From Candidatus Omnitrophota bacterium (GTDB taxonomy: Bacteria; Omnitrophota; Gorgyraeia; Gygaellales; Profunditerraquicolaceae): a DNA stretch of 64,000 nt. The notes beneath the pieces are model-generated. The model did no database searches, was not told where the DNA came from, and saw nothing but the letters and a program-made list of their open reading frames with translations. The number at the start of each line of letters is the position of its first letter. Positions within the stretch are counted from its first letter, which is position 1. The stretch is from positions 554,041 to 618,040 of the forward strand of contig JAKLGJ010000001.1 in NCBI GenBank assembly GCA_022710715.1, given 5' to 3'. This document shows positions 4,286 through 31,391 of this stretch, piece after piece. The position numbers and the translations under genes are program-made.

Positions 4286-5000
4286 GCGGGATAAAGAGAA
4301 TGCGGTTGCAGACTTCGCAGGTAATGATCCGTTCGTACATCTGGATCATGTTGATCACCTGCGGAGGCACCAGCATGTTGCAGCCTGAGCAGGTGTTGTT
4401 CTTCACGGCGACAATGGCCAGCCCTTCGCGGTTTTTCAGGATGCGCTCGTACTGGCTGATGATCGTTTTGTCTATGTCGGGCAGAATCTCTTTGCGCTGC
4501 ACGCCCAGCCGGGCGAGCTGGTCATCTATCTCTTTGATCCGTTGCTCGATCTTCTGTTTCTGCGCGTTAAAGACCCCCTCTTCCGCCTGCAGTTTCTTTT
4601 TCTCTTCCTCTACGGACGACCTGGAGCGTTCGATCTTATCCATGCTTTCCAGGATGCGGTCCTCGATGGTCGAGGCGTCGGCTTTGGCGTCGTTGATCTG
4701 GCCGAGCATGGCCGAATATTCTTTGTTCGTCTTAAGCTGGTATAACTGGGTTTGCAGCTTTTTGACGTTCTCTTCCTGGGTTTGCAGCTCGAGTTCCCGG
4801 TCTTTTTTCTCTTTCTGCGCGTCCAGGTAGCCTTTTTCCTGCGCGGCCAGGTTTTTTTTCTTTTCTTCGAAGGCGTTCTTCAGCGCTTCGATCTCGAGCG
4901 GTTGCGCCCTTTTCTCTTCAGTGAGATCGTATATCTGGCTGTCCACTTCCTGCAAGCGGACCAGCGTTTCCAGCTGCGATTTGAGATTAAGCTGTGCCAC
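4278..5000 (-). CDS. C4 zinc-ribbon / coiled-coil protein (DUF164/COG1579-like)
   Basis: Long coiled-coil followed by a CxxC...CxxC zinc ribbon at the C-terminus (TCSGCNMLVPPQ...CEVCNRIL). The track ORF (start 5069) overlaps tRNA-Val. I moved the start to the in-frame GTG at 5000-4998, which is preceded by AAAGGAAAG. Confidence 0.6.
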   Translation of the reverse strand: MAQLNLKSQLETLVRLQEVDSQIYDLTEEKRAQPLEIEALKNAFEEKKKNLAAQEKGYLDAQKEKKDRELELQTQEENVKKLQTQLYQLKTNKEYSAMLGQINDAKADASTIEDRILESMDKIERSRSSVEEEKKKLQAEEGVFNAQKQKIEQRIKEIDDQLARLGVQRKEILPDIDKTIISQYERILKNREGLAIVAVKNNTCSGCNMLVPPQVINMIQMYERIITCEVCNRILFIPHE

Positions 5001-5032
5001 AGTCTTTCCTTTCGGTAGATGCTGCGTACAAA

Positions 5033-5109
5033 TGGTGGGCGCAATAGGACTTGAACCTATGACCTCCACAATGTGAATGTGGCGCTCTAACCAACTGAGC
5101 CATGCGCCC
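5033..5109 (-). tRNA. tRNA-Val (anticodon CAC), CCA encoded
   Basis: Reverse complement GGGCGCAUGGCUCAGUUGGUUAGAGCGCCACAUUCACAUUGUGGAGGUCAUAGGUUCAAGUCCUAUUGCGCCCACCA folds as a cloverleaf. Anticodon loop is UUCACAU. Confidence 0.85.
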
Positions 5110-5173
5110 GAATCTATTCAACCTCTATATGCCGAGGGCGAAATCAATCGCCGGACCCGCCATGTTCTTCTCT

Positions 5174-5245
5174 TGGGCCCAGGAGGGTTCGAACCTTCGA
5201 CCAAGAGATTATGAGTCTCCTGCTCTTCCGCTGAGCTATGGGCCC
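5174..5245 (-). tRNA. tRNA-Met (anticodon CAU; elongator Met or Ile2-lysidine type), no CCA encoded
   Basis: Reverse complement GGGCCCAUAGCUCAGCGGAAGAGCAGGAGACUCAUAAUCUCUUGGUCGAAGGUUCGAACCCUCCUGGGCCCA. The 1-72 pair is G-C, so it is not an initiator. One A.C mismatch in the T-stem as I read it. Confidence 0.75.
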
Positions 5246-5340
5246 CAAAAGCCGCTCTAACCCTATATGTTCCAGTTATATTTTAGAGTGAAATGCAGGA
5301 TAAAATTATACTATCTTTGGAGGGATTTTGCAAGATAAAA

Positions 5341-5371
5341 AATCAAAAAAGGGTGGCGCGGCAGTCGCCAC
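5341..5371 (-). terminator. putative intrinsic terminator of the 400-aa secreted-protein gene
   Basis: Minus-strand RNA has stem GUGGCG/CGCCAC (loop ACUGCCG) followed by CCCUUUUUUGAUUUUUU, about 75 nt after the stop at 5449. Confidence 0.45.
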
Positions 5372-5448
5372 GCCTATCATGCTGCGATTGCTTGAGTTAA
5401 CGAGTGGACACCCGCGTTCAGATAAAGAAGACTTCGAAAACGATTTTC

Positions 5449-6651
5449 CTAACTTTTATTGAATAATGGATTTTCGGTGATTAAAGGCTGTGAACGGATC
5501 TCGAGAAACTTCTCTGCCAGATCTGCATTGTGCGCTTTCTTTTCTTGTGCCGGATCATCCGGCAGTATGGTTTCTTCTCTCGTCAAAGGTTTACCGAATC
5601 CGGTCGATAGGTAACGGCCGTTGTCGGGGTTATCAGGGTTCAAGGGATCGTGTATATCTATGGTAACTCCTTTATCCCAGCAGCTGGAAGATTTGTACAT
5701 ATTGTATGTGGTTATGTTTCCATAAAGCAGCCGGGTATCTGCTGGTTTCGCAGTTTCGGCCCGATTATCTGCTTGAGACGGCTTGGGTGCTGAAATATCA
5801 GGATAAAAATTATAGGATTGAGCGCTGGCTTCTGTTTTCTGGTCGACGTCGGGCGAGTATGCGGTTGTGCTCTCTGATGCATGTGTCCTGATATACCAGT
5901 TCACTTCTTCCCGGGTGGGAGTATGGTGTATGCTTTCCCAGTATTTCTTTTGAGCGTCAAAAGACTCTTGTATACCATTGCTGGATTGGGCCTGCTGCTG
6001 ATCGGCGGCATATTCCACCAGAGCCTGGGGCTTGCCGTAAGCTCGCCGCTCTTTTCTCAACACCATGTGGGCCCAGTAGGCGTCTTCTGTCATCGTGCCA
6101 TCGGGATTCCTGGCATTTAACAATGCGATGGCTTCGTCCGTAAGTCCTCCGGCAGAAGTCCTGGGAAGCATTTGCCGGGCGCGCTCCATCTTAGCGACCA
6201 CTCCAGCGCTTGTAAGCGTCCCGTCCGGTTTACGGGAAGCTACCAATGCCAGTTGTCCTTGCGAATCCCTTCCGGGGACCTGATCCGGTATGTCGGGAAA
6301 TGGGGATGTTCTCTTGCTTTGCGCAGAAGGCGTTGTTTCGTGCGCGGACTTATCAGATGGCACGATTGGGCTTGTAACCGGATTTCCTTTGCGGTATTCA
6401 GCCAGGATGGCTTCGTCAGTTCTGATCGGGACATTGACCGGGTTGTCCTGATTATATTTGTCCAGCAGTTCATCGTCGGTGTAAACAACAGCTTTTGCGG
6501 GAGGCTCAAATGAACCCGCGCCGGCAGCCATGCACTCGGGATTTATCGGGAATTCGTTCGGGACATCGACTTGAGCCCATGCACTGGCTAAAGCGGCGTT
6601 AAACAACAGGATCAATGCCTGAGATAGAATTTTCATCCTTGCACTGCGCAT
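5449..6651 (-). CDS. secreted hypothetical protein with internal RKPDGTLTSAG / RNPDGTMTED repeats
   Basis: 400 aa. N-terminal signal peptide MKILSQALILLFNAALASAWA. RBS AAGGAGGAG upstream. No recognisable catalytic domain. Monocistronic, with its own promoter, long leader and terminator. Confidence 0.6.
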   Translation of the reverse strand: MRSARMKILSQALILLFNAALASAWAQVDVPNEFPINPECMAAGAGSFEPPAKAVVYTDDELLDKYNQDNPVNVPIRTDEAILAEYRKGNPVTSPIVPSDKSAHETTPSAQSKRTSPFPDIPDQVPGRDSQGQLALVASRKPDGTLTSAGVVAKMERARQMLPRTSAGGLTDEAIALLNARNPDGTMTEDAYWAHMVLRKERRAYGKPQALVEYAADQQQAQSSNGIQESFDAQKKYWESIHHTPTREEVNWYIRTHASESTTAYSPDVDQKTEASAQSYNFYPDISAPKPSQADNRAETAKPADTRLLYGNITTYNMYKSSSCWDKGVTIDIHDPLNPDNPDNGRYLSTGFGKPLTREETILPDDPAQEKKAHNADLAEKFLEIRSQPLITENPLFNKS

Positions 6652-6679
6652 CGACTCCTCCTTGGTTTACGGGAACCGT

Positions 6680-6722
6680 AAAATAAAAAAACCGGATCGC
6701 CTTTTCTTTTTCGGCAACCCGG
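6680..6722 (-). terminator. terminator-like hairpin plus U-tract inside the 5' leader, 28 nt upstream of the 400-aa gene ATG (attenuator candidate)
   Basis: Minus-strand RNA CCGGGUUGCC-GAAAAAGAAAAG-GCGAUCCGG (8/10-bp stem) followed by UUUUUUUAUUUU. It lies downstream of the predicted promoter and directly before the RBS. Confidence 0.4.
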
Positions 6723-6863
6723 ATATAGTTCGGAATTCAAAACTATTTTACCGTGGCTTTCCTGGCCTCACCCCTTCGGTCCGTCTTTATCGATGCCTCT
6801 CCCCCCAAGGTTCGGCTTTATCGATAAGAATCGAGTATTACTGATTTAAATATGTGTGATTTA

Positions 6864-6892
6864 AGTTTACCCTGCGCGGCTGTTGTTTTCAA
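6864..6892 (-). promoter_or_regulatory. predicted sigma70 promoter for the 400-aa secreted-protein gene (TTGAAA-17-TAAACT)
   Basis: Minus strand reads TTGAAAacaacagccgcgcagggTAAACT, 55-80 nt after the stop of the upstream gene. This gives a ~215-nt leader. The leader also contains a 10-bp perfect palindrome TTATCGATAA (6819-6828) and a second CTTTATCGAT copy (6785-6795). Confidence 0.3.
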
Positions 6893-6945
6893 GGGCGTAG
6901 CGGATGGAATCTGTAAACGTTTTCTTGGGCTTGAAGGATGCAAGA

Positions 6946-7287
6946 CTATTGGAAGGAAGGAAGCTCTACTTTGATCTTACCTTGTTCTTCGGGGTTGGAA
7001 ACGACATAGCTGATACTGGAATTCAAATAGGATGACCATTTGTCATTTCGCCCCCTGCGCAGCGGGCCTAACGCGGATTTATCCTGATCGAGACGTTCAT
7101 TCGTTTTGTTGAAAACCATCGAGCGGTAATACACCTGTCCGATAGTCAGGCTGTGCAGGAACGCATTATTCCGGGCGGCAGCCTTAATGTCGTATTCCAG
7201 CAAAGCCGAGACGTTGGTGATAGACATGAAGAATGCCGTGAGCAGCGAAATAATGATGATGAGAGCACTGACTACCAGTCCGAACAT
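6946..7287 (-). CDS. small membrane-anchored protein, last gene of the pseudopilin cluster
   Basis: 113 aa with an N-terminal hydrophobic helix (FGLVVSALIIIISLLTAFF) but no G-F-T-L-I-E prepilin motif. 3-nt gap to the upstream prepilin-like gene. Confidence 0.5.
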   Translation of the reverse strand: MFGLVVSALIIIISLLTAFFMSITNVSALLEYDIKAAARNNAFLHSLTIGQVYYRSMVFNKTNERLDQDKSALGPLRRGRNDKWSSYLNSSISYVVSNPEEQGKIKVELPSFQ

Positions 7288-7290
7288 GGA

Positions 7291-7956
7291 TTACCGCCTT
7301 TTAACGACGTCGATGAACCAGAACCTGACTCCCTGGATCTTTTCCACCGTGGAAGAAACCCCGAACAGATTCTTGCGTTTGCTGTGAGTGGTTACATGCA
7401 CTTTAAAGAAATTCGGGCTCATCGGTTCCTCGGAACTGCCATCGACGGCAGGGGTGAACCGGAAAACGACATCCGCCTGGTATTTTCCTTCGATCAGGAC
7501 TCGTTCGGTGCCGGTATCGACGTTCCGGATCATCAGTGCGCCGCGCAGACCGTCCGGGCATCTCTGGCCTGACGGGCATTTGATGTAATATTCATACCAG
7601 ATATCGTCGCTATTCTCCTCGGGGGTTATGTTGAAGATGTTGCCCTGTCCGCGGAATTTGAAGTTATGCAGCTCTTCCGGTTCGTAACCCGAGAAACTGG
7701 TTTCGTTGTCGATCTCCACCGCGCTGGTGCAACGCAGACTGATGTCCTGCAAGGTGTTGCTGATCTGGGTATGCATGTTAAAACGTTCCATATACAAGCT
7801 TACCTGATGCGCGGTGTGCATGGTCATCCAGTAGATCGCCATGGCGACGGACGGCAGCAGGATCAGCGCGATGAGCATTTCGATCAGACTGAAAGCTTTA
7901 GCCGCTTTTTTACTGCGCGGCCCCGGTTGTGAAAGTCGTTTCTTCTCGTCGATCAT
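7291..7956 (-). CDS. prepilin-type N-terminal cleavage/methylation domain protein (minor pilin / pseudopilin-like)
   Basis: 221 aa. A 21-aa basic leader is followed by AFSLIEMLIALILL, a type IV pilin class III signal with Ala rather than Gly at -1 and Glu at +5. Confidence 0.65.
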   Translation of the reverse strand: MIDEKKRLSQPGPRSKKAAKAFSLIEMLIALILLPSVAMAIYWMTMHTAHQVSLYMERFNMHTQISNTLQDISLRCTSAVEIDNETSFSGYEPEELHNFKFRGQGNIFNITPEENSDDIWYEYYIKCPSGQRCPDGLRGALMIRNVDTGTERVLIEGKYQADVVFRFTPAVDGSSEEPMSPNFFKVHVTTHSKRKNLFGVSSTVEKIQGVRFWFIDVVKRR

Positions 7957-7957
7957 G

Positions 7958-8851
7958 TCAGCGGCTTGCCTCGGTGGCGAAAACGGTCATATCGAGATCC
8001 CGCAGGTAAAAGGTGTTTTTTTCACCGTGCCTGAACCAGCGCAGCTCTATGGTATGCTTCTGTTCCGGCTTGACGTTGGGAATAGTGATCTTCTGGCAGT
8101 TGATGGGCTGCGATTGTATCGGGGCCCATCCGCCGTATTCGGTCAGCCCGTAAGGGACTTCGTCGAACAAAAGCAGCGTATGAATCGCATCCGTGGGAGG
8201 TATGCCCTCCAGCGCTTCCGGATAAACGGAAACGCAATAATACACCTGAATGTCTTTTTCCACCGCGTATTCGACTTCGATCTTGCTGCGGGGAACAACA
8301 TGTTGCCAGCCGGGATGCCGGGGGTACTGGTACTCCGTCATCGGATCATCCGAAGCGGGGTAGTTAGCGACCTTGCAGGCGGCCGAAGGCGGGTACGGAC
8401 AGTGATAACTCTGCCGGCTTAGATGCACTTCAGGATAGGGATACATGGCGGTCAGGCGTAACGCGCGCTGGCCGGGGCTCTGCCCTTCCATGGCAACCCG
8501 GTCGTACCAGGCAGTCACGGTGATATTCTTATAGGGGATCTTGCGAAAATCGGGAGTATTCTTTCCCTGCAGCATCCGGGTCTCTTCGGGTGACACGGAA
8601 ATATTCCAGAAAGTTTTCAACCCGTCGATCCAGGACTGTTCCCCTGTTTCATTGCGCACGTAATCATACCCTCGCGCCAGAGTGCGTTCCATCTGGGTCT
8701 GCGCAACGCTCATGGCCCGGGAATCCAGTTCTTTGTTCTTGAGCATCTGAAAGCCGCCGCTCAAAGATACCACGATGATCCCGGAGATGATCACGGTGAT
8801 CACCACGGTTACCAGGAGTTCCACGTAGGTAAGACCCGTTCTGGTTCGCAT
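7958..8851 (-). CDS. prepilin-type N-terminal cleavage/methylation domain protein (pseudopilin-like, PilW/GspK-sized)
   Basis: 297 aa. MRTRTG|LTYVELLVTVVITVII has Gly at -1, Glu at +5 and a hydrophobic helix. The gene ends 1 nt before the next start. Confidence 0.7.
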   Translation of the reverse strand: MRTRTGLTYVELLVTVVITVIISGIIVVSLSGGFQMLKNKELDSRAMSVAQTQMERTLARGYDYVRNETGEQSWIDGLKTFWNISVSPEETRMLQGKNTPDFRKIPYKNITVTAWYDRVAMEGQSPGQRALRLTAMYPYPEVHLSRQSYHCPYPPSAACKVANYPASDDPMTEYQYPRHPGWQHVVPRSKIEVEYAVEKDIQVYYCVSVYPEALEGIPPTDAIHTLLLFDEVPYGLTEYGGWAPIQSQPINCQKITIPNVKPEQKHTIELRWFRHGEKNTFYLRDLDMTVFATEASR

Positions 8852-8852
8852 A

Positions 8853-9683
8853 TTAGAGTTCTCGGTCCAGCGGCATAAGGGTAATGGTCATCTGCCGGCT
8901 GTTGGCCGGGCTGAAGACCGTCAGCGGCGAATCGTTTTTCCAGTAGATCTCGATAATCAGGCTTGCGGGAAGTTCGCCGTTGTAATCATCGGGCATGATC
9001 AATGCGCTGCCCGTCATTACCGGTTCGCAGGGCGGAGAAGGCGGCGGAGGCGGCGTAGATACATGGGTCCTTTCCTCTCCCGGCGGCATCGAAATCTTGG
9101 CTTCTCCCTTTGGGTTCTTCATATCGGAGTTGACGATACAGCGGGAAATCACCGAATATCCCTCGGGAAAAGCCTGGATCGACGTGCCGTACCAGGCCCC
9201 TTCGCAGAGTTTATTCTCGATCTCCATCGCCGCCGGAGAATTGCCGAATACCTCCATTGTCCAGGTTACGATGACCTTGGCTGTTTTGCGGTATTCTTTA
9301 GGGATAGCAAGCTTATATTTGAATTCTTCCACCGGCACGAAATCCGCTTCCGATTCTTGAGCGGCTTTGCCGGAAAATTTGCTCTTGAGATGGATCGGCG
9401 CAAGGCTCAACCCGTCCGTGGCCGTGCCGTTTTCGACTTTTCCTTCGTGTTTGGCAGCGAGGTATTCCTCGCATTCAGGCTGTGTTCCGGCCTCAAAACT
9501 TTTGAAATGAGGATAACGCGCTTCGTCAAGTTCGATCCGGGATTTACCGGTGATCTCCTTGACCTGCGGGGTAAGATTTGCGGTCATTTGAGCGGTATCC
9601 TTGGCCAGGGCCGTCCCGCTTACGAGCAACCACAACGATAAGAACACACCGACTCCCACTGCGCTTCTGTTCGATTGTTTCAT
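8853..9683 (-). CDS. secreted hypothetical protein (signal peptide; PPPPPSPP linker)
   Basis: 276 aa. Signal peptide MKQSNRSAVGVGVFLSLWLLVSGTALA. No recognisable domain. Tightly linked within the pseudopilin cluster. Confidence 0.55.
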   Translation of the reverse strand: MKQSNRSAVGVGVFLSLWLLVSGTALAKDTAQMTANLTPQVKEITGKSRIELDEARYPHFKSFEAGTQPECEEYLAAKHEGKVENGTATDGLSLAPIHLKSKFSGKAAQESEADFVPVEEFKYKLAIPKEYRKTAKVIVTWTMEVFGNSPAAMEIENKLCEGAWYGTSIQAFPEGYSVISRCIVNSDMKNPKGEAKISMPPGEERTHVSTPPPPPSPPCEPVMTGSALIMPDDYNGELPASLIIEIYWKNDSPLTVFSPANSRQMTITLMPLDREL

Positions 9684-9695
9684 TGTTTCCTCCTT

Positions 9696-11054
9696 TTATT
9701 CCTTGCCGGATGGAGTGACGTCATGCCGCTGGGCACGGTAAATTTTCAATTCGACGCCCTTCAACCATACCGATAATTCGGCTTTCTTCTGGTCATCGTC
9801 GAACATGGGAATGAAATAGCAGAGTTCGACAGTATATGTTTTGAACGGCTCAAGTCCGCCGTTTTCGGGTTTCTCGTCGAAATAAGCCGCAGCTTCGATA
9901 GAGCAGTTGCCCCGGAAGGAACGCTGATGATGCGAGCTGTAAGCCTTGGTCTGGCCGCTGGGATCGATGATCCTGACCATCGAGAAGAATTGCGGCGGGT
10001 CTATGGACGGATTATCTTCGGCATACGTGCTGACCGGGGTGATGGTTTCCACGTTGATCGACCAGATCACGCCGATAGCTTCGTTTTCGCGGGCGCTGAA
10101 CATGAATTTCATGCTTTTACCGGCCGGAAAACCGTCAATATCGTCGATGGGCAGATAGTCTTTATCCGTCAAGCCCAGGATCCACTGGGTGTAGGCTTCT
10201 TCCACAAGCTTGCACTCTTCCGGGCTGGGTGCTGTCCGGCACGGGCTGTTCGCGCTTACCAGTGTATCGCAGGCAGATTCTTTGCAGGGAGGATTGCTGC
10301 CGGTAAACAGCGGTTCCCGGCAGCAGTTATAATCGCGCACGCATTTTTCCCATCCTTTTACGTCGCTGGAGCAGCGCGCGGCGCAGGATTTGAAATCGAC
10401 GGTCGGCACGTATTTGTAGCAGAAGTTCGGAGAGTTGTTGCATTTCGCTCTGTCGGCCTGCTGGGAATCGTCGTAAAATTCGATACTTCTGGAACAACTG
10501 CGGATATCCGGGTTGTTCGGCGTGCAGAACCGCCTGGGGGCGTATCCTCTGCGGTCGCAATACCAGATCGTGGAATCGGAGGGATCGACTTTGCAATCGC
10601 CCTCCGGTTGAAAAGCCGGGCAGCCATCCTCGTAACAGTTGAACTGGCCGCCGCTGCAGGCGGGATTGCAATTATCGTTTACGTCGATAGGCGAACATTC
10701 GCTGGGACGGAAAGGTATCTGTTTGGGCGTGCAGTCAAAAGAGTAACATTTTTTGTGCGGCGTGCCGGCGCTGTCGTATTCCAGGCAGGTGTCTTCCGGA
10801 CACCGGAGGCGCAATTCGTTGCATTTCCTGCAGGCTTTCCTTTTCACGAGTATCTCGGAGCCGGCAAAATCCGAATCCTGCAGCTGTAAATGCAAACCGC
10901 GGGCTACAGCGGAATTGATCGCGAAATCCTTGGGAAGATAATTGATCACGCGTTTGCCGCTATCTTCCGCGGTTCCGGCTAACGGCAAAAAAAAGACCAT
11001 GGCCACAGCAAGGCACATGGTGAAAATAACCGGTTGAGTGCGCAATTGTCCCAT
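9696..11054 (-). CDS. cysteine-rich secreted protein (putative adhesin / filament-tip protein), novel
   Basis: 452 aa. Signal peptide, then a roughly 230-aa region with about 45 Cys in irregular CxC / CxxC / Cx(n)C spacing, then a Cys-poor ~150-aa C-terminal domain. I recognise no catalytic motif. Confidence 0.6.
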   Translation of the reverse strand: MGQLRTQPVIFTMCLAVAMVFFLPLAGTAEDSGKRVINYLPKDFAINSAVARGLHLQLQDSDFAGSEILVKRKACRKCNELRLRCPEDTCLEYDSAGTPHKKCYSFDCTPKQIPFRPSECSPIDVNDNCNPACSGGQFNCYEDGCPAFQPEGDCKVDPSDSTIWYCDRRGYAPRRFCTPNNPDIRSCSRSIEFYDDSQQADRAKCNNSPNFCYKYVPTVDFKSCAARCSSDVKGWEKCVRDYNCCREPLFTGSNPPCKESACDTLVSANSPCRTAPSPEECKLVEEAYTQWILGLTDKDYLPIDDIDGFPAGKSMKFMFSARENEAIGVIWSINVETITPVSTYAEDNPSIDPPQFFSMVRIIDPSGQTKAYSSHHQRSFRGNCSIEAAAYFDEKPENGGLEPFKTYTVELCYFIPMFDDDQKKAELSVWLKGVELKIYRAQRHDVTPSGKE

Positions 11055-11103
11055 ACTGAAAATATAGCATATTTTTCAGTAATTACAACAAAAAGTCGCG
11101 AAA

Positions 11104-11484
11104 TCAATACCCTTTAAGGGTTTCTTTGCGTACGTGATAGTTGATGGTATCGCAGAGATTTTTCCGGTCGCGTTCCTCTATTTCCTGAAATGCCACTCTG
11201 GTTTCATAGATAGAATCCGGAGTGACTTCCTGGCAGGCAAGCACCCTGCCTTTCACAAACACCGGTTGGGCGGTTATGGGAAGACGGATGTGCAAACCGA
11301 AAGCCGTGTCAGGTTCATACGGCCTGCTGGTGGTAAAACGGATCCCGCCCATTCCTATATCCCGGGTCTGGGAAACGTCGGTAATAACGAACTGGGTATT
11401 CTCAACCATTCCGTAGGAAACCAGAAAACGGGCATGGGCGCGGGGAAAGCTGCGTTTATCGGTGTGGGAAGTCTGTTGCTCCAT
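11104..11484 (-). CDS. PilZ-like c-di-GMP receptor domain protein
   Basis: 126 aa. Contains RSFPR (RxxxR) and, about 25 aa later, DIGMGGIRF (a D-x-S/G-x-G-G variant) in the spacing typical of PilZ domains. Confidence 0.55.
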   Translation of the reverse strand: MEQQTSHTDKRSFPRAHARFLVSYGMVENTQFVITDVSQTRDIGMGGIRFTTSRPYEPDTAFGLHIRLPITAQPVFVKGRVLACQEVTPDSIYETRVAFQEIEERDRKNLCDTINYHVRKETLKGY

Positions 11485-11507
11485 TCGGTCCCTCCTTCCG
11501 GGAAAGC

Positions 11508-11990
11508 CTAATTCTGCGAATAATACCTGTTGATGGTTTTGACTATTTCCTTGTTCGTGGCGATAAAAGGCATAACGTTCAGATCGGAAAAATACCGCAA
11601 TTCTTCGAATGCGCGGTGATTGAGAGGATTAGCCGCTGCCACCGTCAGATTCCGGCCGTATACATCGACCGGCATCAGGTGATATTTCCGGCAGAACCAT
11701 TCCGGCACCAGCGCCACAACGTCGGGATTCAGCTGATAATGCTCTAACGGCAGGTACGGAACGCTGTACTGCGCGGTAAACGCCTGGATAATATCTTCTT
11801 CACTGGCCAGTTCAAGGCTCAACAGGATCTCGCCGAAAAAGTTATGGCCGTTCTGCGACAGTTCACCGCTGATCGCCAGGACCTTCTCCAGCTGAACCTC
11901 GTTGAGGATCCCCCGTTCCAGCAGGATCTCGCCCATGCGTTTCGCGGTAAGACGTTTCTTGAGATGGATCGGATGATCGGGTTTAACCAT
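11508..11990 (-). CDS. stand-alone GspE/MshE N-terminal (MshEN-like) domain protein with c-di-GMP-binding motifs
   Basis: 160 aa after moving the start to MVKPDHP... (ATG at 11990, RBS GAGGAG). RMGEILLERGILNEVQLEKVLAISGELSQ fits the MshEN motif R(L/M)GxxLLxxGxLxxxQLxxAL..Q. A second degenerate copy is FFGEILLSLELASEEDIIQAFTAQ. There is no ATPase domain. Confidence 0.65.
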   Translation of the reverse strand: MVKPDHPIHLKKRLTAKRMGEILLERGILNEVQLEKVLAISGELSQNGHNFFGEILLSLELASEEDIIQAFTAQYSVPYLPLEHYQLNPDVVALVPEWFCRKYHLMPVDVYGRNLTVAAANPLNHRAFEELRYFSDLNVMPFIATNKEIVKTINRYYSQN

Positions 11991-12003
11991 GAGTCTCCTC
12001 TCA

Positions 12004-12056
12004 ACAAAAAAACCACGGTCTCTTAAAAACCGGTTACCCGGTTCAAGATTCCGTGG
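12004..12056 (-). terminator. terminator-like hairpin plus U7, 14 nt upstream of the MshEN-like gene ATG (UvrD terminator and/or leader attenuator)
   Basis: Minus-strand RNA CCACGG...CCGGGUAACCGG...CCGUGG followed by UUUUUUUGUUG. It lies between a predicted promoter and the RBS. Confidence 0.4.
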
Positions 12057-12071
12057 CTGTAGGTTGTAAGA

Positions 12072-12100
12072 ACTATAGCATACGAACGCGCACATTTCAA
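12072..12100 (-). promoter_or_regulatory. predicted sigma70 promoter of the pseudopilin/c-di-GMP receptor cluster (TTGAAA-17-TATAGT)
   Basis: Minus strand reads TTGAAAtgtgcgcgttcgtatgcTATAGT, immediately after the UvrD stop. Confidence 0.3.
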
Positions 12101-12118
12101 GCCGGAGAGAAAATTTTT

Positions 12119-14065
12119 TCAGATCACGTCGTAATCGAGCCGGACTTCCTGATCGAGCTTGGAAAGGACCTGGTGGGAATCGAGGAAACGCGAAACTTTG
12201 TTGAACTGGCTTAAGCCCATGCCGGTATTCTCATGATGCACGGATAGAAAAAGCCTGGTTTTCGCCCGGGTGAGCGCCACGTAAAAAAGCCGCTGTTCCT
12301 CTTCTATACTGGAGTCGTCATTCAAAGCAAAGCTGACCGGCAGCACTCCGTCGATCAGTCCGATCAGGAACACGCATTCCCATTCCAGCCCCTTGGCGGA
12401 ATGAATCGTCGACAAGGTCACGGGTTTTTCTTCATCGGGCAGGCTTGCCTGCGCCTGCGCCACTCCCCGGTCCGGAGGCTCCAGGGCGAAGTCGGCCAGG
12501 AAATCGCCGAGCGAGTCGTAACGCTGGGCGATTTGTTTGATCGCCTCGAAATCGTTGATGCGCTGGTTCCAGTCGTCGAATTTGTTCTTGAGTATCGGCA
12601 GATAATAGTCGATCAGCGTTTCCAGCTTGTCCGCGGTCCTGACCTGCGCATCTGAAAGTTTTTCCAGGGTGACGACCAGCCGCGCGATATCGCGGGCGAA
12701 TTTATACTGTCTGGTCTCTTCGGGCAGCACGGAGCTCACCGCCCGGTTCAGATCGCCGGCAGCGTTGATCTTGTCCACGATCTTGCTGGCGGTTTTCGGG
12801 CCGATGCCTTCGATCAACTGCAGCATGCGCGCCCAGGAGAGCTCGTCTTTATAATTGGCGACGATCTTCAAATGCGCCAGAACGTCTTTTACATGAGCGG
12901 TTTCATAGAATTTCATGCCCCCGTACACCTGGAAGGGGATGCTGCGGCGGCTTAATTCCAGTTGTAACGGGATAGACAGGTACGCGGAGCGGAAGAGCAC
13001 CGCCTGATGGGAAAATGCCAGGCCTTCGCTGCGCAGCTGGAGCATCTTGTCCGCGATCCATTCCGCTTCCGAAGAACTGTCCTGAAAAAATGACAACTGG
13101 GGTTTCTCCCCCTCCGTCCCTTTGGCGGAGAAAAGCTCTTTTTTGTACTTTGAGGTCATATTGTTGAGCACGGCATTAGCCACTTCCAGGATCGCCTGGC
13201 TGCTGCGGTAATTAGCCTCCAGCTTGAATACTTTGCATCCGGCGAAACGCTGCGGGAACTCCATGATGTTCTCGTGCGTGGCGCCCCGGAAGCCGTAAAT
13301 GCTCTGCGCGTCGTCACCGACGACCATGCAGTTGCGGAATTTCTGCGCCAGCAGAAAGGTGATATCGGCCTGCAGCCGGTTGGTGTCCTGGTATTCGTCA
13401 ACCATGATGTAACGGAATTTTTCCGACAGCCCCTCGCGGATGTTTTCGTTCCGGGTCAATAACAGCCGCAGGTAGATCAGGAGGTCGTCGTAATCGAAAT
13501 AATTCTTTTCCATCTTGTAGCGCGCGTAGGCCGCCTTGATCTTTTCCATTTCCGGCACATATTCACAAAAATGCGGATATTCCTTCTCCACTACCTGGTC
13601 CAGAGAAAGGCTTTTATTAACCGACATGGAGAGTATCTTGCGCAGGGTGTCTTTGCGCGGGAAACGCTTGCTCTTTTCGTTAAGCCCGAGTTTACCCAGA
13701 CAGAGATGAATGGCGTCTTCGGCGTCCGATTCATCGATGATCATGAAGGAATCGAATCCGATGTGCCGGGAATGCTTCTTGAGCACCTGATAGGCAAACG
13801 AATGGAAGGTCCCTCCTTCCACGTAACTGCAGCGGATGTCGTTGCGCGAAGCCCGGGCGAGCATTTGCTGCGCCGCTTTGCGGGTAAAGGTCAGAAGCAG
13901 TATGGCGTGCGGGGGGATATTCTGCTGGACCATATGCAGCACGCGGTATTCGATCACTCTCGTTTTGCCGGATCCGGCGCCGGCGATAACCAGCACCGGT
14001 CCTTCGATGGTCTGCACTACCTGTAATTGTGACGGGTTAAGTTGTTGCGTTATATCAATGGTCAT
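12119..14065 (-). CDS. ATP-dependent DNA helicase, UvrD/PcrA/Rep (SF1) family
   Basis: 648 aa. Walker A GAGSGKTRV, motif II VDEYQDTN, motif VI VALTRAK. Confidence 0.85.
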   Translation of the reverse strand: MTIDITQQLNPSQLQVVQTIEGPVLVIAGAGSGKTRVIEYRVLHMVQQNIPPHAILLLTFTRKAAQQMLARASRNDIRCSYVEGGTFHSFAYQVLKKHSRHIGFDSFMIIDESDAEDAIHLCLGKLGLNEKSKRFPRKDTLRKILSMSVNKSLSLDQVVEKEYPHFCEYVPEMEKIKAAYARYKMEKNYFDYDDLLIYLRLLLTRNENIREGLSEKFRYIMVDEYQDTNRLQADITFLLAQKFRNCMVVGDDAQSIYGFRGATHENIMEFPQRFAGCKVFKLEANYRSSQAILEVANAVLNNMTSKYKKELFSAKGTEGEKPQLSFFQDSSSEAEWIADKMLQLRSEGLAFSHQAVLFRSAYLSIPLQLELSRRSIPFQVYGGMKFYETAHVKDVLAHLKIVANYKDELSWARMLQLIEGIGPKTASKIVDKINAAGDLNRAVSSVLPEETRQYKFARDIARLVVTLEKLSDAQVRTADKLETLIDYYLPILKNKFDDWNQRINDFEAIKQIAQRYDSLGDFLADFALEPPDRGVAQAQASLPDEEKPVTLSTIHSAKGLEWECVFLIGLIDGVLPVSFALNDDSSIEEEQRLFYVALTRAKTRLFLSVHHENTGMGLSQFNKVSRFLDSHQVLSKLDQEVRLDYDVI

Positions 14066-28550: not shown

Positions 28551-29051
28551 CTAAACTTTTAATTCGCCGTGTTTTTTGATGTAATTGACGACCCCGCCGT
28601 CCTTGAGGAATTCCTGCATTACCGGAGGCAGGGGTTTGATGGAAAGTTCGATCCCTTTGGTCCTGTTCTTGACCACCCCGTGGTCGAGGTCAAGTTCCAG
28701 TTCATCCCGGTCGTCGATTTTGGAAGTATCCGTTTCGATAAGGAGCAGCCCGATATTGAAAGCGTTGCGGAAGAATATCCTCGCGAACGACTGTGCCAGG
28801 ACCGCGATGATGCCGGCGCCTTTGATGACCAGCGGCGCCTGTTCGCGCGACGACCCCATGCCGAAATTCTTCCCAGCGACGAGAATTGACTCGCCCGGCG
28901 TGATTTTTTTGTGAAAGTCGGGATCGATATCCTCCATGATGTGCTTGGCCAGCTCATTGATATCGGTAATGGAGAATTTGTAGCGGCCGGAAATGATGAA
29001 ATCGGTATTGATATTGTCGCCGATCTTTATGCTGTTGCCCGTGAGTTTCAC
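28551..29051 (-). CDS. aconitase-superfamily small subunit (LeuD / homoaconitase small subunit, archaeal-type)
   Basis: 166 aa, MKLTGNSIKIGDNINTDFII...GKNFGMGSSREQAP. Confidence 0.8.
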   Translation of the reverse strand: MKLTGNSIKIGDNINTDFIISGRYKFSITDINELAKHIMEDIDPDFHKKITPGESILVAGKNFGMGSSREQAPLVIKGAGIIAVLAQSFARIFFRNAFNIGLLLIETDTSKIDDRDELELDLDHGVVKNRTKGIELSIKPLPPVMQEFLKDGGVVNYIKKHGELKV

Positions 29052-29077: not shown

Positions 29078-30124
29078 TTACAACTGTTTGAATTCTTCCA
29101 CGTTCTTAGCCTTGGACATGGCCACTTCCAGCGTGATCAATCCCTTATTATATAATTCTTTGAGCGTCTTATCCATGGTCTTCATCCCGTACTGGCTGCC
29201 GGTTTGCATGATCGTGGGGATCTGCTCGATTTCCTGCTCGCGGACAAGGTTGCGGATGGCCGGCGTGGCGACCAGGGTTTCGGTGACCAGACAGCGGCCG
29301 GTTCCCGACTGATGCGGGACCAGGAGTTGCGATACGATGCCCTGCAAACAGTCTGCCAGCTGCAGGCGGACCTGCTGCTGTTGATGAGGCGGAAAAACGT
29401 CGATGATTCTCTCGATGGTCTGCGGCGCATCCGGAGTATGCAGCGTGGCCAGTACGAGATGGCCGGTTTCCGCTGCGGTCAGCGTGGTTGAAATGGTTTC
29501 CAGATCGCGCATTTCCCCTACGATAATGACGTTGGGATCCTGGCGCAGGCAGTGGCGCAGCGCTTCGGAGAATGAATGCGTATCCGCATAGACCTCGCGT
29601 TGCTTGACAATGGCTTTCTTGTTGGTATAAATGAATTCTATAGGGTCTTCGATAGTGATGATCAATCCTTCGCGCTCCTGGTTGATCAGGTTCACTACCG
29701 CGGCCATGGTAGTCGATTTACCCACGCCGGTAGGGCCGGTGATCAGCACCAGACCGTTCGGCCTGCGGGCCAGCTCCATGACTACCGGAGGCAGCCCCAG
29801 GGATTCGATGTCGGGAATTTCGAGCGGGATGCGCCGGAAAGCCCCTTCAACCGATCCTTTCTGCTGATGCAGATTGACGCGGAAGCGGTCCAGGCAGGGC
29901 AAGGCCAGGGAAAAGTCGAGCTCCAGGTCGCGTTCGAACATTTCTTTTTGCGTGTCGGTCAACACGCTGTAAATCATCTTCTTAAGCACATCGCGGGTCA
30001 ACTTGGCCAGGTCGGTGCGCAGCAGGCGGCCGTCGATACGCAACAACGGCGGTTCGTTCTCGGTGAGATGCAGGTCGGACGCTCTTTTCTTGACGCAGAG
30101 TATCAATAGCTCATTAATATCCAT
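29078..30124 (-). CDS. pilT: type IV pilus retraction ATPase PilT
   Basis: 348 aa. Walker A GPTGVGKST, Asp box, Walker B, His box. PilT-specific AIRNLVRE near the C-terminus. Confidence 0.85.
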   Translation of the reverse strand: MDINELLILCVKKRASDLHLTENEPPLLRIDGRLLRTDLAKLTRDVLKKMIYSVLTDTQKEMFERDLELDFSLALPCLDRFRVNLHQQKGSVEGAFRRIPLEIPDIESLGLPPVVMELARRPNGLVLITGPTGVGKSTTMAAVVNLINQEREGLIITIEDPIEFIYTNKKAIVKQREVYADTHSFSEALRHCLRQDPNVIIVGEMRDLETISTTLTAAETGHLVLATLHTPDAPQTIERIIDVFPPHQQQQVRLQLADCLQGIVSQLLVPHQSGTGRCLVTETLVATPAIRNLVREQEIEQIPTIMQTGSQYGMKTMDKTLKELYNKGLITLEVAMSKAKNVEEFKQL

Positions 30125-30134
30125 GCTGCCTCCC

Positions 30135-31391
30135 TTATCCTAGAAACTTTGTAGGGTCGGTGATCTTTCCGGTGATCGCTGATGCTGCCACTGTTGCCGG
30201 TGAAGCCAGATAGATGAACGCGCTGGGATTTCCCATCCTGCCTTTGAAATTCCGGTTTGCCGTGGAGATGACCACTTCCCCGTCCGAAGGAACGCCGTTA
30301 TGCGTTCCCACGCAGGGGCCGCAACCCGGGACCACAACCGCGGCGCCGCTCTTGACGAACGTATCGATATAGCCCAGGCGCAACGCTTCAAGATAGATTG
30401 CCCGGGAAGCCGCAGCGACGATACAGCGCACGTTGGCGGCTACTTTTCTGTTCTTGAGCACCGCAGCCGCGACCTTCAGATCGGCGAGCCGCCCGTTGGT
30501 GCAGGTGCCGATAAAAGCTTCGTTTATCGTTACTGCTTTAACGTCGTCCGCATCCGAGACCGTATCCACATTATGAGGGACAGCGACCTGGGGTTTTAGT
30601 TTAGAGACGTCGAACTCCAGGACGTCCTGGTACACTGCGTCTTTGTCGGCGCAGACCGTAACGATCTTCTTGTTCGACGGAATATGCTGTTTGAACCAGG
30701 CCAGGGTTTTAGCGTCCTGCGGCATGAATCCCGCCTTGGCGCCCATCTCCACCACCATATTGCACATGGTCATCCTGCCGTCAATGTCCATGGCGTCGAT
30801 TACCGGTCCGCAAAACTCTATTGCTTTATAGGTGGCGCCGTTAGCGCCCACTTTTCCGATGATGTGCAGAATGATATCCTTGGCGTAAATGCCTTTCGGC
30901 AGTTTACCTTTGACCACTATCTTGATCGTTTCGGGAACCTTGAACCAGTTCTTCCCGGTAGTCAGCGCCACTGCGAGGTCCGTCGAGCCCACGCCGGTCG
31001 AAAATACGCCCAGCGCGCCGTAGGTGCAGGTGTGCGAATCCGCCCCCAGAACCAGGTTGCCCGGGAGAATCGCTCCGGATTCAGGAATTACCTGATGGCA
31101 TACGCCGCAGCCGATGTCGAACAACCCGACGTTATATTCCTGGCTGAACTGGCGCATCTTTTTGTGCACGCGCGAGACGCCCTCGTTGGGCGAAGGCGCG
31201 CTGTGGTCGATGACCATGCAGAATGCAGCGTTGAGCTTTTTGGCGCCGAGCTCTTTGACCCGGTCTATGATTATGGACGAGGTGCCGTCCTGCCCGAAGG
31301 TAAAATCAACGGCGCAAATGGCGAATTCGCCGGCACTGACCGGTTTTCCGGCGTGAGCGCTCAAAATTTTTTCGGCAATTGTTTTTCCCAT
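30135..31391 (-). CDS. aconitase-superfamily large subunit (LeuC / homoaconitase large subunit, archaeal-type)
   Basis: 418 aa. MGKTIAEKILSAHAGK..., Fe-S Cys ligands (...CGPCVG...), short archaeal-type length. Confidence 0.85.
   Translation of the reverse strand: MGKTIAEKILSAHAGKPVSAGEFAICAVDFTFGQDGTSSIIIDRVKELGAKKLNAAFCMVIDHSAPSPNEGVSRVHKKMRQFSQEYNVGLFDIGCGVCHQVIPESGAILPGNLVLGADSHTCTYGALGVFSTGVGSTDLAVALTTGKNWFKVPETIKIVVKGKLPKGIYAKDIILHIIGKVGANGATYKAIEFCGPVIDAMDIDGRMTMCNMVVEMGAKAGFMPQDAKTLAWFKQHIPSNKKIVTVCADKDAVYQDVLEFDVSKLKPQVAVPHNVDTVSDADDVKAVTINEAFIGTCTNGRLADLKVAAAVLKNRKVAANVRCIVAAASRAIYLEALRLGYIDTFVKSGAAVVVPGCGPCVGTHNGVPSDGEVVISTANRNFKGRMGNPSAFIYLASPATVAASAITGKITDPTKFLG

Follow-up and report, generated by a model that had tools for sequence, protein, structure and literature searches.

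An intact stand-alone MshEN protein encoded next to a PilZ gene in Candidatus Omnitrophota, a candidate trans-acting adaptor of a type IV pilus

We analyzed 64,000 nucleotides of a Candidatus Omnitrophota bacterium (contig JAKLGJ010000001.1, positions 554,041 to 618,040; this whole 64-kb stretch is referred to as the window), in which an open reading frame (ORF) on the minus strand encodes a free-standing MshEN protein, a domain of the type that serves as a receptor for cyclic di-GMP (c-di-GMP) and that normally forms the N-terminal part of MshE/PilB/GspE-type pilus or secretion motor ATPases. The ORF list and the sequence place its ATG at 11990 and its TAG at 11510-11508. An earlier note on this DNA, made from the sequence alone, had claimed a stand-alone MshEN-like domain at 11508-11990 that stops after about 160 amino acids (aa); the coordinates proved exact and the length is exactly 160. 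The protein is identical to NCBI HOW42939.1/HRZ15083.1, and several samples in JGI, ENA and Logan hold the same intact ORF, on 13 contigs in all, of which the largest measures 1.62 Mb. Gene callers picked the 160-aa form on each of five public contigs. A longer reading of 195 aa from an upstream ATG also exists, but it overlaps a terminator-like hairpin and lacks a ribosome-binding site. The gene order, all on the minus strand, is UvrD-like helicase, hairpin, MshEN, PilZ, then genes for proteins of 452, 276, 297, 221, 113 and 400 aa, and a second hairpin (Table 1), so that a PilZ gene (11104-11484), the partner named in the note, and pilin-like genes are present downstream on the same strand. 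MshEN is probably the first gene of an operon, followed by the PilZ gene, a pair of genes for secreted proteins, a pair for pilin-like proteins and two more for small or secreted proteins.

Table 1. Positions of the features discussed, numbered from the first letter of the window
Feature	Position	Strand	Remarks
Sigma-70-like promoter match	12072..12100	-	TTGAAA, 17 nt, TGcTATAGT; upstream of hairpin
Terminator-like hairpin	12006..12056	-	CCACGG...CCGTGG + T7; between UvrD-like and MshEN genes; terminator scan, sequence
Shine-Dalgarno GAGGAG	11995..12000	-	4 nt 5' of MshEN ATG; direct sequence reading
Stand-alone MshEN coding sequence	11508..11990	-	160 aa; 'hypothetical protein' of Candidatus Omnitrophota in NCBI
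MshEN motif I, residues 18-41	11868..11939	-	RMGEILLERGILNEVQLEKVLAIS; equivalent to V. cholerae MshE R9-Q32; L10 to M, Q32 to S; alignment to 5HTL
MshEN motif II, residues 51-74	11769..11840	-	FFGEILLSLELASEEDIIQAFTAQ; equivalent to V. cholerae MshE R38-Q61; R38 to F, L39 to F, G47 to E, L54 to I, L58 to F, Q61 kept; alignment to 5HTL
MshEN_C / T2SSE_N1 subdomain, residues 75-159	11514..11768	-	Pfam PF05157 stretch; alpha/beta elements of the AlphaFold2 model
PilZ-domain protein, 126 aa	11104..11484	-	Pfam PilZ E 2.8e-8, 34.4 bits vs cut-off 22.5
Cys-rich protein, 452 aa	9696..11054	-	N-terminal hydrophobic signal-like segment; no family match; probably same operon
Protein, 276 aa	8853..9683	-	signal-peptide-like N-terminus
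Pilin-like protein, 297 aa	7958..8851	-	N-terminus TG/LTYVELLVTVVI like prepilin leader, Glu at +5
Prepilin-type protein, 221 aa	7291..7956	-	KA/FSLIEMLIAL; TIGR02532 20.9 bits vs cut-off 16.3; Pfam N_methyl weak
Protein, 113 aa	6946..7287	-	N-terminal hydrophobic helix, membrane-anchored
Protein, 400 aa	5449..6651	-	signal-peptide-like N-terminus
Terminator-like hairpin	5355-5374		after 400-aa gene; terminator scan
PilT/PilU-family ATPase, 348 aa	29078..30124	-	Pfam T2SSE; TIGR01420 461.8 bits; without N-terminal MshEN

A short MshEN ORF could also be the 5' remnant of a disrupted pilB or gspE gene. Partial GspE fragments are common in the protein sets of metagenome-assembled genomes, and such a remnant occurs at one locus of a relative (L015, 8001-10259), where a 195-aa MshEN ORF, immediately followed by a DDE transposase and beside a prepilin peptidase, is probably a pilB truncated by an insertion sequence, in contrast to the intact stand-alone genes. 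However, when 33 PilB-type proteins of 540-900 aa were compared with the window by tblastn, no downstream ATPase-like sequence appeared in any frame, including the frameshifted ATPase remnant raised in the earlier note. Only two places were matched, the MshEN ORF and 29093-30118 (the PilT gene, ~17 kb away), the matches ending at ~11430 and restarting only at the second place. The PilZ gene begins 23 nt past the MshEN stop with a ribosome-binding site of its own (GGAAGGAGGG), and the nearest relatives have the same length and end a few residues past the domain. The ORF ends at residue 160 and the polypeptide lacks the C-terminal T2SSE (PF00437) ATPase domain with its Walker motifs; TIGR02538 covers it at model positions 2-138 of 564 only, with 64 bits against a cut-off of 675. 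The recurrence of the identical ORF on 13 contigs of independent samples, its own ribosome-binding site and the lack of a nearby ATPase remnant show that the gene is intact and conserved in its population and that it encodes a single-domain protein. The remnant explanation is effectively refuted, and we regard it as extremely improbable.

The identity of the domain was supported by Pfam, NCBIfam and Protein Data Bank (PDB) matches far beyond chance. Pfam PF05157 (MshEN) matched residues 75-159 (E 1.2e-20, 73.7 bits vs cut-off 23.1), and NCBIfam NF053729, a 53-residue c-di-GMP_motif model, matched residues 18-74 over model positions 1-53 (E 6.7e-10, 38.6 bits vs cut-off 38). In phmmer searches of the PDB, residues 13-159 aligned to Geobacter PilB N-domains (E 8e-19) and residues 16-157 to Vibrio cholerae MshEN (5HTL, E 1.2e-13), the latter across the motif helices, as expected by the earlier note; the GSPII domains of Thermus thermophilus PilF were also matched. 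An AlphaFold2 model built on an alignment of 41 stand-alone relatives had a mean predicted local distance difference test (pLDDT) of 93.5 and contained helices 19-25, 31-47, 52-58 and 64-75, followed by an alpha/beta subdomain. The structural comparison suggested in the note gave the V. cholerae MshEN complex with c-di-GMP (5HTL) as the top Foldseek match (template modelling score, TM, 0.74/0.84; root-mean-square deviation 2.3 A; 30% identity; E 2.8e-10), with the Xanthomonas citri PilB(N)-PilZ complex (7LKM/7LKO) next and the PilF GSPII domains after it. The 160-aa protein is thus a full MshEN domain, composed of the N-terminal four-helix bundle (MshEN_N) and T2SSE_N1, and nothing else.

The MshEN motif consensus consists of two tandem 24-residue copies of (R/K/L)LGxxhhxxGhhxxxxLxxxLxxQ. 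Residue equivalences were taken from the phmmer alignment to 5HTL. In motif I, V. cholerae MshE R9, L10, G11, G18, L25, L29 and Q32 correspond to R18, M19, G20, G27, L34, L38 and S41 of our protein, and in motif II, R38, L39, G40, G47, L54, L58 and Q61 correspond to F51, F52, G53, E60, I67, F71 and Q74. The ligand-site residues kept are therefore R18, G20, G27, L34, L38, G53 and Q74, the equivalents of R9, G11, G18, L25, L29, G40 and Q61. In this, in the tandem layout of the 24-residue stretches and in its two-subdomain fold the protein resembles V. cholerae MshEN (PMC5013675), from which it differs by having no T2SSE ATPase, by the replacements at Q32, R38 and G47 and by a longer inter-motif spacer; its own binding of c-di-GMP is plausible. 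Motif I is close to canonical and conforms to the relaxed pattern of Wang et al. 2016 (PMC5013675), its last position being S. Motif II, the second and degenerate copy recognized in the earlier note, keeps G3, the hydrophobic positions and Q24. The note had quoted the first copy as RMGEILLERGILNEVQLEKVLAISGELSQ (residues 18-46), with its glutamine at the end; the tandem motif I is present, but this Gln is not at the canonical place, which is occupied by S41, Q46 lying five residues further. We rejected the register in which Q46 is the canonical motif I glutamine. HMMER aligns Q46 with Q32 across a 4-residue gap and the modelled helix extends to residue 47; judged from the model, Q46 may have a compensating role.

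To place the protein among its relatives, 1.84 billion representative proteins were scanned with it by HMMER, which gave 11,634 matches at E<=1e-3. Proteins of <=200 aa made up 56 of the 150 best matches, their median best-domain score was 96 bits vs 55 bits for longer proteins, and the 11 closest by per-domain score were all stand-alone (147-178 aa, 37-44% identity). From these database matches we defined a stand-alone MshEN clade. In alignment, the short relatives have common starts and ends, with a basic N-terminus leading into motif I and a finish a few residues after the domain, and they are therefore complete proteins and not truncations. The Omnitrophota protein fits this class (147-180 aa, basic N-terminus and motif I, end within ~10 residues of the domain). 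Thus, the view in the earlier note of a sensor domain uncoupled from its ATPase holds in so far as no ATPase lies in the polypeptide or nearby, but it is not a one-off event, as the architecture is a widespread clade. Some stand-alone relatives were named 'PilB' by JGI, and they carry the PF05157 annotation in public databases. Word-indexed homologue searches with the MshEN and PilZ proteins retrieved nothing beyond the query proteins, and a search of genome contigs with the single MshEN protein found no relative. Separately, relatives of at least 1,300 aa (e.g., P0005, P0009 and P0028) contained five or six tandem MshEN-like stretches, vs a maximum of four in the table of Wang et al.

We then examined ten other loci with clade members. 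Motor or platform genes (T2SSE/T2SSF) adjoined MshEN in six of the ten: GGDEF, MshEN, PilB, PilB, REC-HD-GYP and PilC in L006/L007; MshEN, PilB, PilB, MshEN, PilC, pilin and PilMNOPQ in L009/L010; MshEN, an MshEN-T2SSE-PilZ protein, PilC and pseudopilins in L012/L013; MshEN and PilB in L016; a PilT-like ATPase and MshEN in L017; and MshEN, PilC and pilin in L018. An MshEN-PilZ link was seen in three of the ten, including L008, with its MshEN, PilZ gene pair, and L011, whose single MshEN-PilZ fusion protein, P0166, is colinear with the gene order here. Members of the clade are usually encoded inside or beside sets of genes for type IV pili or type II secretion, and the sampled relatives indicate that the stand-alone form is common and strongly tied to pilus-motor, GGDEF/HD-GYP and PilZ genes. 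The idea that our protein acts in trans on PilZ and a pilus is strengthened by the L008 pair, the P0166 fusion, the L012 ATPase and the relatives in pilB/pilC clusters.

Details of three of these loci should be added. P0166 (L011, 1741-2631) has 296 aa, and its PilZ part carries canonical RxxxR and NxSxxG. The L012 ATPase (6057-8183) is a 708-aa MshEN-T2SSE-PilZ protein, also with canonical RxxxR and NxSxxG, and is preceded by a stand-alone MshEN gene. In L017 (2641-4189), a stand-alone MshEN gene (159 aa) comes 4 nt after the gene for a 354-aa T2SSE-only (PilT-like) ATPase, an arrangement which raises the possibility that MshEN proteins partner in trans with motors lacking the N-domain.

Whether such proteins bind c-di-GMP was considered with motif statistics of 41 stand-alone relatives. 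Motif II position 1 was Leu in 19, Phe in 7, Pro in 4 and Arg in 2; the motif II Gln (position 24) was kept in 39 of the 41 and the motif I Gln in 28, and Gly at position 3 of both motifs was essentially invariant. The conserved motif II Gln and Gly residues, with Leu or Phe usual at motif II position 1, suggest that a ligand site is maintained in the clade with a hydrophobic cap like that of PilF GSPII-B. In GSPII-B (8PDK), Leu at this position (L196) stacks on guanine, with a dissociation constant of 6 nM and weaker binding by L196R, the motif I mutant K167L binds at 2 nM, and single Gln-to-Glu mutants bind at 0.5-1 uM, only the double mutant being dead; GSPII-C binds c-di-GMP with Pro at motif II position 1 (PMC11731258). 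Because GSPII-B with L196 binds at 6 nM, the hydrophobic residue found here (F51) and in most of the clade (Leu/Phe) appears compatible with nanomolar binding. GSPII-B, however, keeps both Gln and belongs to a tandem of three domains attached to an ATPase, whereas here one Gln is lost and the protein is free-standing.

Domains with the same fold and a degenerate motif II that do not bind are also known, namely PilF GSPII-A and Xanthomonas campestris XpsE-N (PMC12002112, PMC5013675). In GSPII-A, His stands in for the motif I Gln, and motif II carries Ser at position 1 and Ala in place of Gly at position 3, with two Leu changed to Ile and the final Gln to Arg; binding was not recovered when its consensus was put back (PMC12002112). 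XpsE-N has lost c-di-GMP binding (PMC5013675). Our protein keeps the position 3 Gly and the last Gln of motif II, both of which GSPII-A has replaced, and XpsE has many more replacements than our protein. In addition, helix alpha1 of our model begins at residue 19 and does not appear elongated into the binding site, unlike that of GSPII-A as described in PMC12002112. Since the literature on PilF GSPII-A, -B and -C and XpsE makes the motif deviations indecisive in either direction, we put the chance that the MshEN protein binds c-di-GMP at about even.

The partner gene encodes a PilZ-domain protein in which RxxxR is present (KRSFPR, R11..R15). A phmmer search of the PDB with this protein found nothing relevant, and single-sequence AlphaFold2 gave a pLDDT of 32. 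The pairing of MshEN and PilZ at this locus is a genomic association, and a parallel is offered by X. citri PilB N-PilZ (7LKM/7LKN/7LKO; PMC8389850), in which an MshEN-fold domain physically binds a small PilZ protein. In that system the FimX EAL domain binds c-di-GMP and PilZ itself does not; by comparison, the PilZ protein here keeps RxxxR and MshEN is a separate protein. The docking proposed for MshEN together with PilZ is drawn by analogy: in X. citri, PilZ is bound by the N1 domain of PilB, and N1 domains are believed to touch the stator or the platform (PMC11656802).

Taken together, these data lead us to favor, with moderate confidence, a reading in which the protein is a c-di-GMP-receptor-type domain that works as a trans-acting regulatory adaptor of a type IV pilus, paired with PilZ. 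In partnership with the adjacent PilZ protein it would serve as a small adaptor in the cytoplasm, its four-helix bundle would sense c-di-GMP, and its T2SSE_N1 half would dock onto a PilB/PilT-type ATPase or a platform. The outcome might be a tuned assembly of a pilus or pseudopilus that is built from, or displays, the co-encoded pilin-like and secreted proteins. We infer both the physical MshEN-PilZ interaction and the pilus target.

Nevertheless, several observations weigh against this reading. The final Gln of motif I is replaced by S41, and motif II fails the relaxed pattern of Wang et al. at positions 1 (F51 for R/K/P/N) and 10 (E60 for G/A/S). The inter-motif spacer has 9 residues, vs 5 in V. 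cholerae MshE, although its length also varies in the stand-alone clade (5 in 17 sequences, 7 in 15 and 9 in 3) and is 7 in Geobacter PilB and PilF GSPII-C, which makes a five-residue spacer a weak criterion. The NF053729 score is borderline, only 0.6 bits over the cut-off. With such deviations, sequence alone cannot decide c-di-GMP binding. Furthermore, the (D/N)xSxxG motif of the PilZ partner reads DIGMGG, with Ser replaced by Gly, in comparison with three canonical PilZ domains, and therefore its c-di-GMP binding is also uncertain. With a terminator-like hairpin before MshEN and a promoter match that does not convince, the transcription unit is a tentative one. Finally, tblastn found no PilB, PilC, PilM/N/O/Q, GGDEF or HD-GYP gene in the window, so that the pilus target is a proposed one.

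Some of these observations would be expected if the protein were an adaptor or decoy blind to c-di-GMP. In this case nucleotide binding would have been lost, as in XpsE-N, PilF GSPII-A or X. citri PilB-N, and the protein, a module for protein interaction only, would bind PilZ and/or compete with the N1 domain of an ATPase for the platform, the c-di-GMP input coming through PilZ or another protein. The S41, F51 and E60 deviations, the 9-residue spacer, the borderline NF053729 score and the precedents of XpsE (PMC5013675) and GSPII-A are all consistent with it, as are the presence of two regex-perfect motifs in only 4-13 of 56 stand-alone relatives and the second-best structural match, the X. 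citri PilB(N)-PilZ complex, where FimX EAL and not PilZ binds the nucleotide. However, the near-invariant motif II Gln (Q74 here), the invariant Gly and the conserved Leu are hard to explain without a ligand, a hydrophobic motif II position 1 fits nanomolar binding, GGDEF and HD-GYP genes lie directly beside relatives, and the modelled alpha1 lacks the elongation described for GSPII-A. We consider a blind adaptor possible but rather unlikely.

It is also conceivable that the receptor or adaptor has an output unrelated to pili; it might, for example, control in some other way how the co-encoded Cys-rich and secreted proteins are secreted or adhere, or act on an unrelated target in the cytoplasm. 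MshEN is found joined to many outputs other than pili, among them glycosyltransferase, REC, CheA/CheX and kinases (PMC5013675, supplementary Table 4), one stand-alone relative (L014) is an orphan with no pilus genes nearby, and here MshEN has neither a pilus motor gene nor a platform gene as its neighbor. On the other hand, two pilin-type genes are found in the same gene string, and T2SSE/T2SSF genes are adjacent in most of the sampled loci. A non-pilus output therefore seems quite improbable to us. Extending the preferred reading of a trans-acting pilus adaptor, stand-alone MshEN proteins might be a general class of detachable, c-di-GMP-loaded N1 subunits that dock in trans on PilB/PilT-type ATPases or the platform of type IV pilus and type II secretion systems; here, MshEN and PilZ would form a two-receptor module that switches on the assembly of a specialised pilus with the co-encoded Cys-rich and secreted proteins at its tip. 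This broader proposal is speculative and we think it doubtful.

Two c-di-GMP receptor domains, MshEN and PilZ, have been described as the only ones with a wide distribution across bacterial phyla; ComFB was recently proposed as a third (PMC12448109). In the literature surveyed, experimental work on MshEN dealt with domains fused to ATPases or glycosyltransferases, and the present locus shows that MshEN also exists as a free protein. This is not a new kind of system. The MshEN family is well known (Wang et al. 2016), and ATPase-less MshEN proteins have been reported, such as PA3740, NfrB (GT2-MshEN) and MshEN-REC (PMC5013675). Going by its description in supplementary Table 4 of PMC5013675, Pseudomonas aeruginosa PA3740 is similar in having an ATPase-less MshEN-xT2SSE_N1 arrangement; it is a tested c-di-GMP binder with a link to swarming, its C-terminal half is a highly diverged T2SSE_N1, and no PilZ pairing is reported in that description. 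The architecture table of Wang et al. (PMC5013675) has no plain 'MshEN only' row, and no description of stand-alone MshEN proteins or of an MshEN and PilZ operon was found in the literature searched. A useful outcome here is the recognition of a sizeable stand-alone MshEN clade and of its linkage to PilZ. If stand-alone MshEN proteins bind c-di-GMP and act in trans, they would add a layer of pilus regulation that is now annotated as 'hypothetical' or mislabelled 'PilB'. As Omnitrophota is an uncultured phylum, this gene might offer a concrete, clonable candidate that ties surface-appendage genes to second-messenger signalling.

Among the downstream genes, the one for the 452-aa protein is located between PilZ and the pilin-like part of the string. 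Its product has very many cysteines with CxxC-like spacing throughout and had no Pfam, NCBIfam or PADLOC match; from its sequence it is a candidate tip adhesin or secreted cargo. The 297-aa pilin-like protein gave weak ComGE/XpsI N-terminal matches, and tblastn with pilin and prepilin peptidase queries gave no match in the window. The 400-, 113- and 276-aa proteins had no family match in any library tried. PADLOC found no defence-system match among the operon proteins, and a repeat search of 5000-12200 gave short, chance-level repeats only.

The 128-nt region between the UvrD-like and MshEN genes has a predicted fold of -42.4 kcal/mol (z = -3.05), with the hairpin and T7 run directly before the MshEN ribosome-binding site (12006-12118, minus strand) and a U/C-rich stretch at its 5' end that pairs with the Shine-Dalgarno region. 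This fold could be the terminator of the helicase gene or a leader/attenuator. An Rfam search (E<=1) of 10900-12300 found no riboswitch or leader RNA, and therefore a known c-di-GMP riboswitch is ruled out. The sigma-70-like promoter match in this region may be a chance match; eight promoter matches were found vs 8.1 expected by chance.

The UvrD-like helicase gene itself (12119-14065, minus strand) gave a strong PADLOC match to GajB (E 2.6e-94). Neither the operon proteins nor the DUF192 protein encoded upstream of the UvrD-like gene included a GajA-like partner; the match therefore probably reflects generic UvrD similarity and not a Gabija system.

No T2SSE ATPase other than the PilT/PilU-family protein is encoded in the window; it has no operon link to MshEN and is a candidate trans partner of the MshEN protein. 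Its gene is flanked by genes for the large and small subunits of an aconitase-family (leuC/leuD-like) enzyme (30135-31391 and 28551-29051), and an isocitrate/isopropylmalate dehydrogenase gene adjoins this cluster, which is an unusual place for a pilus retraction motor.

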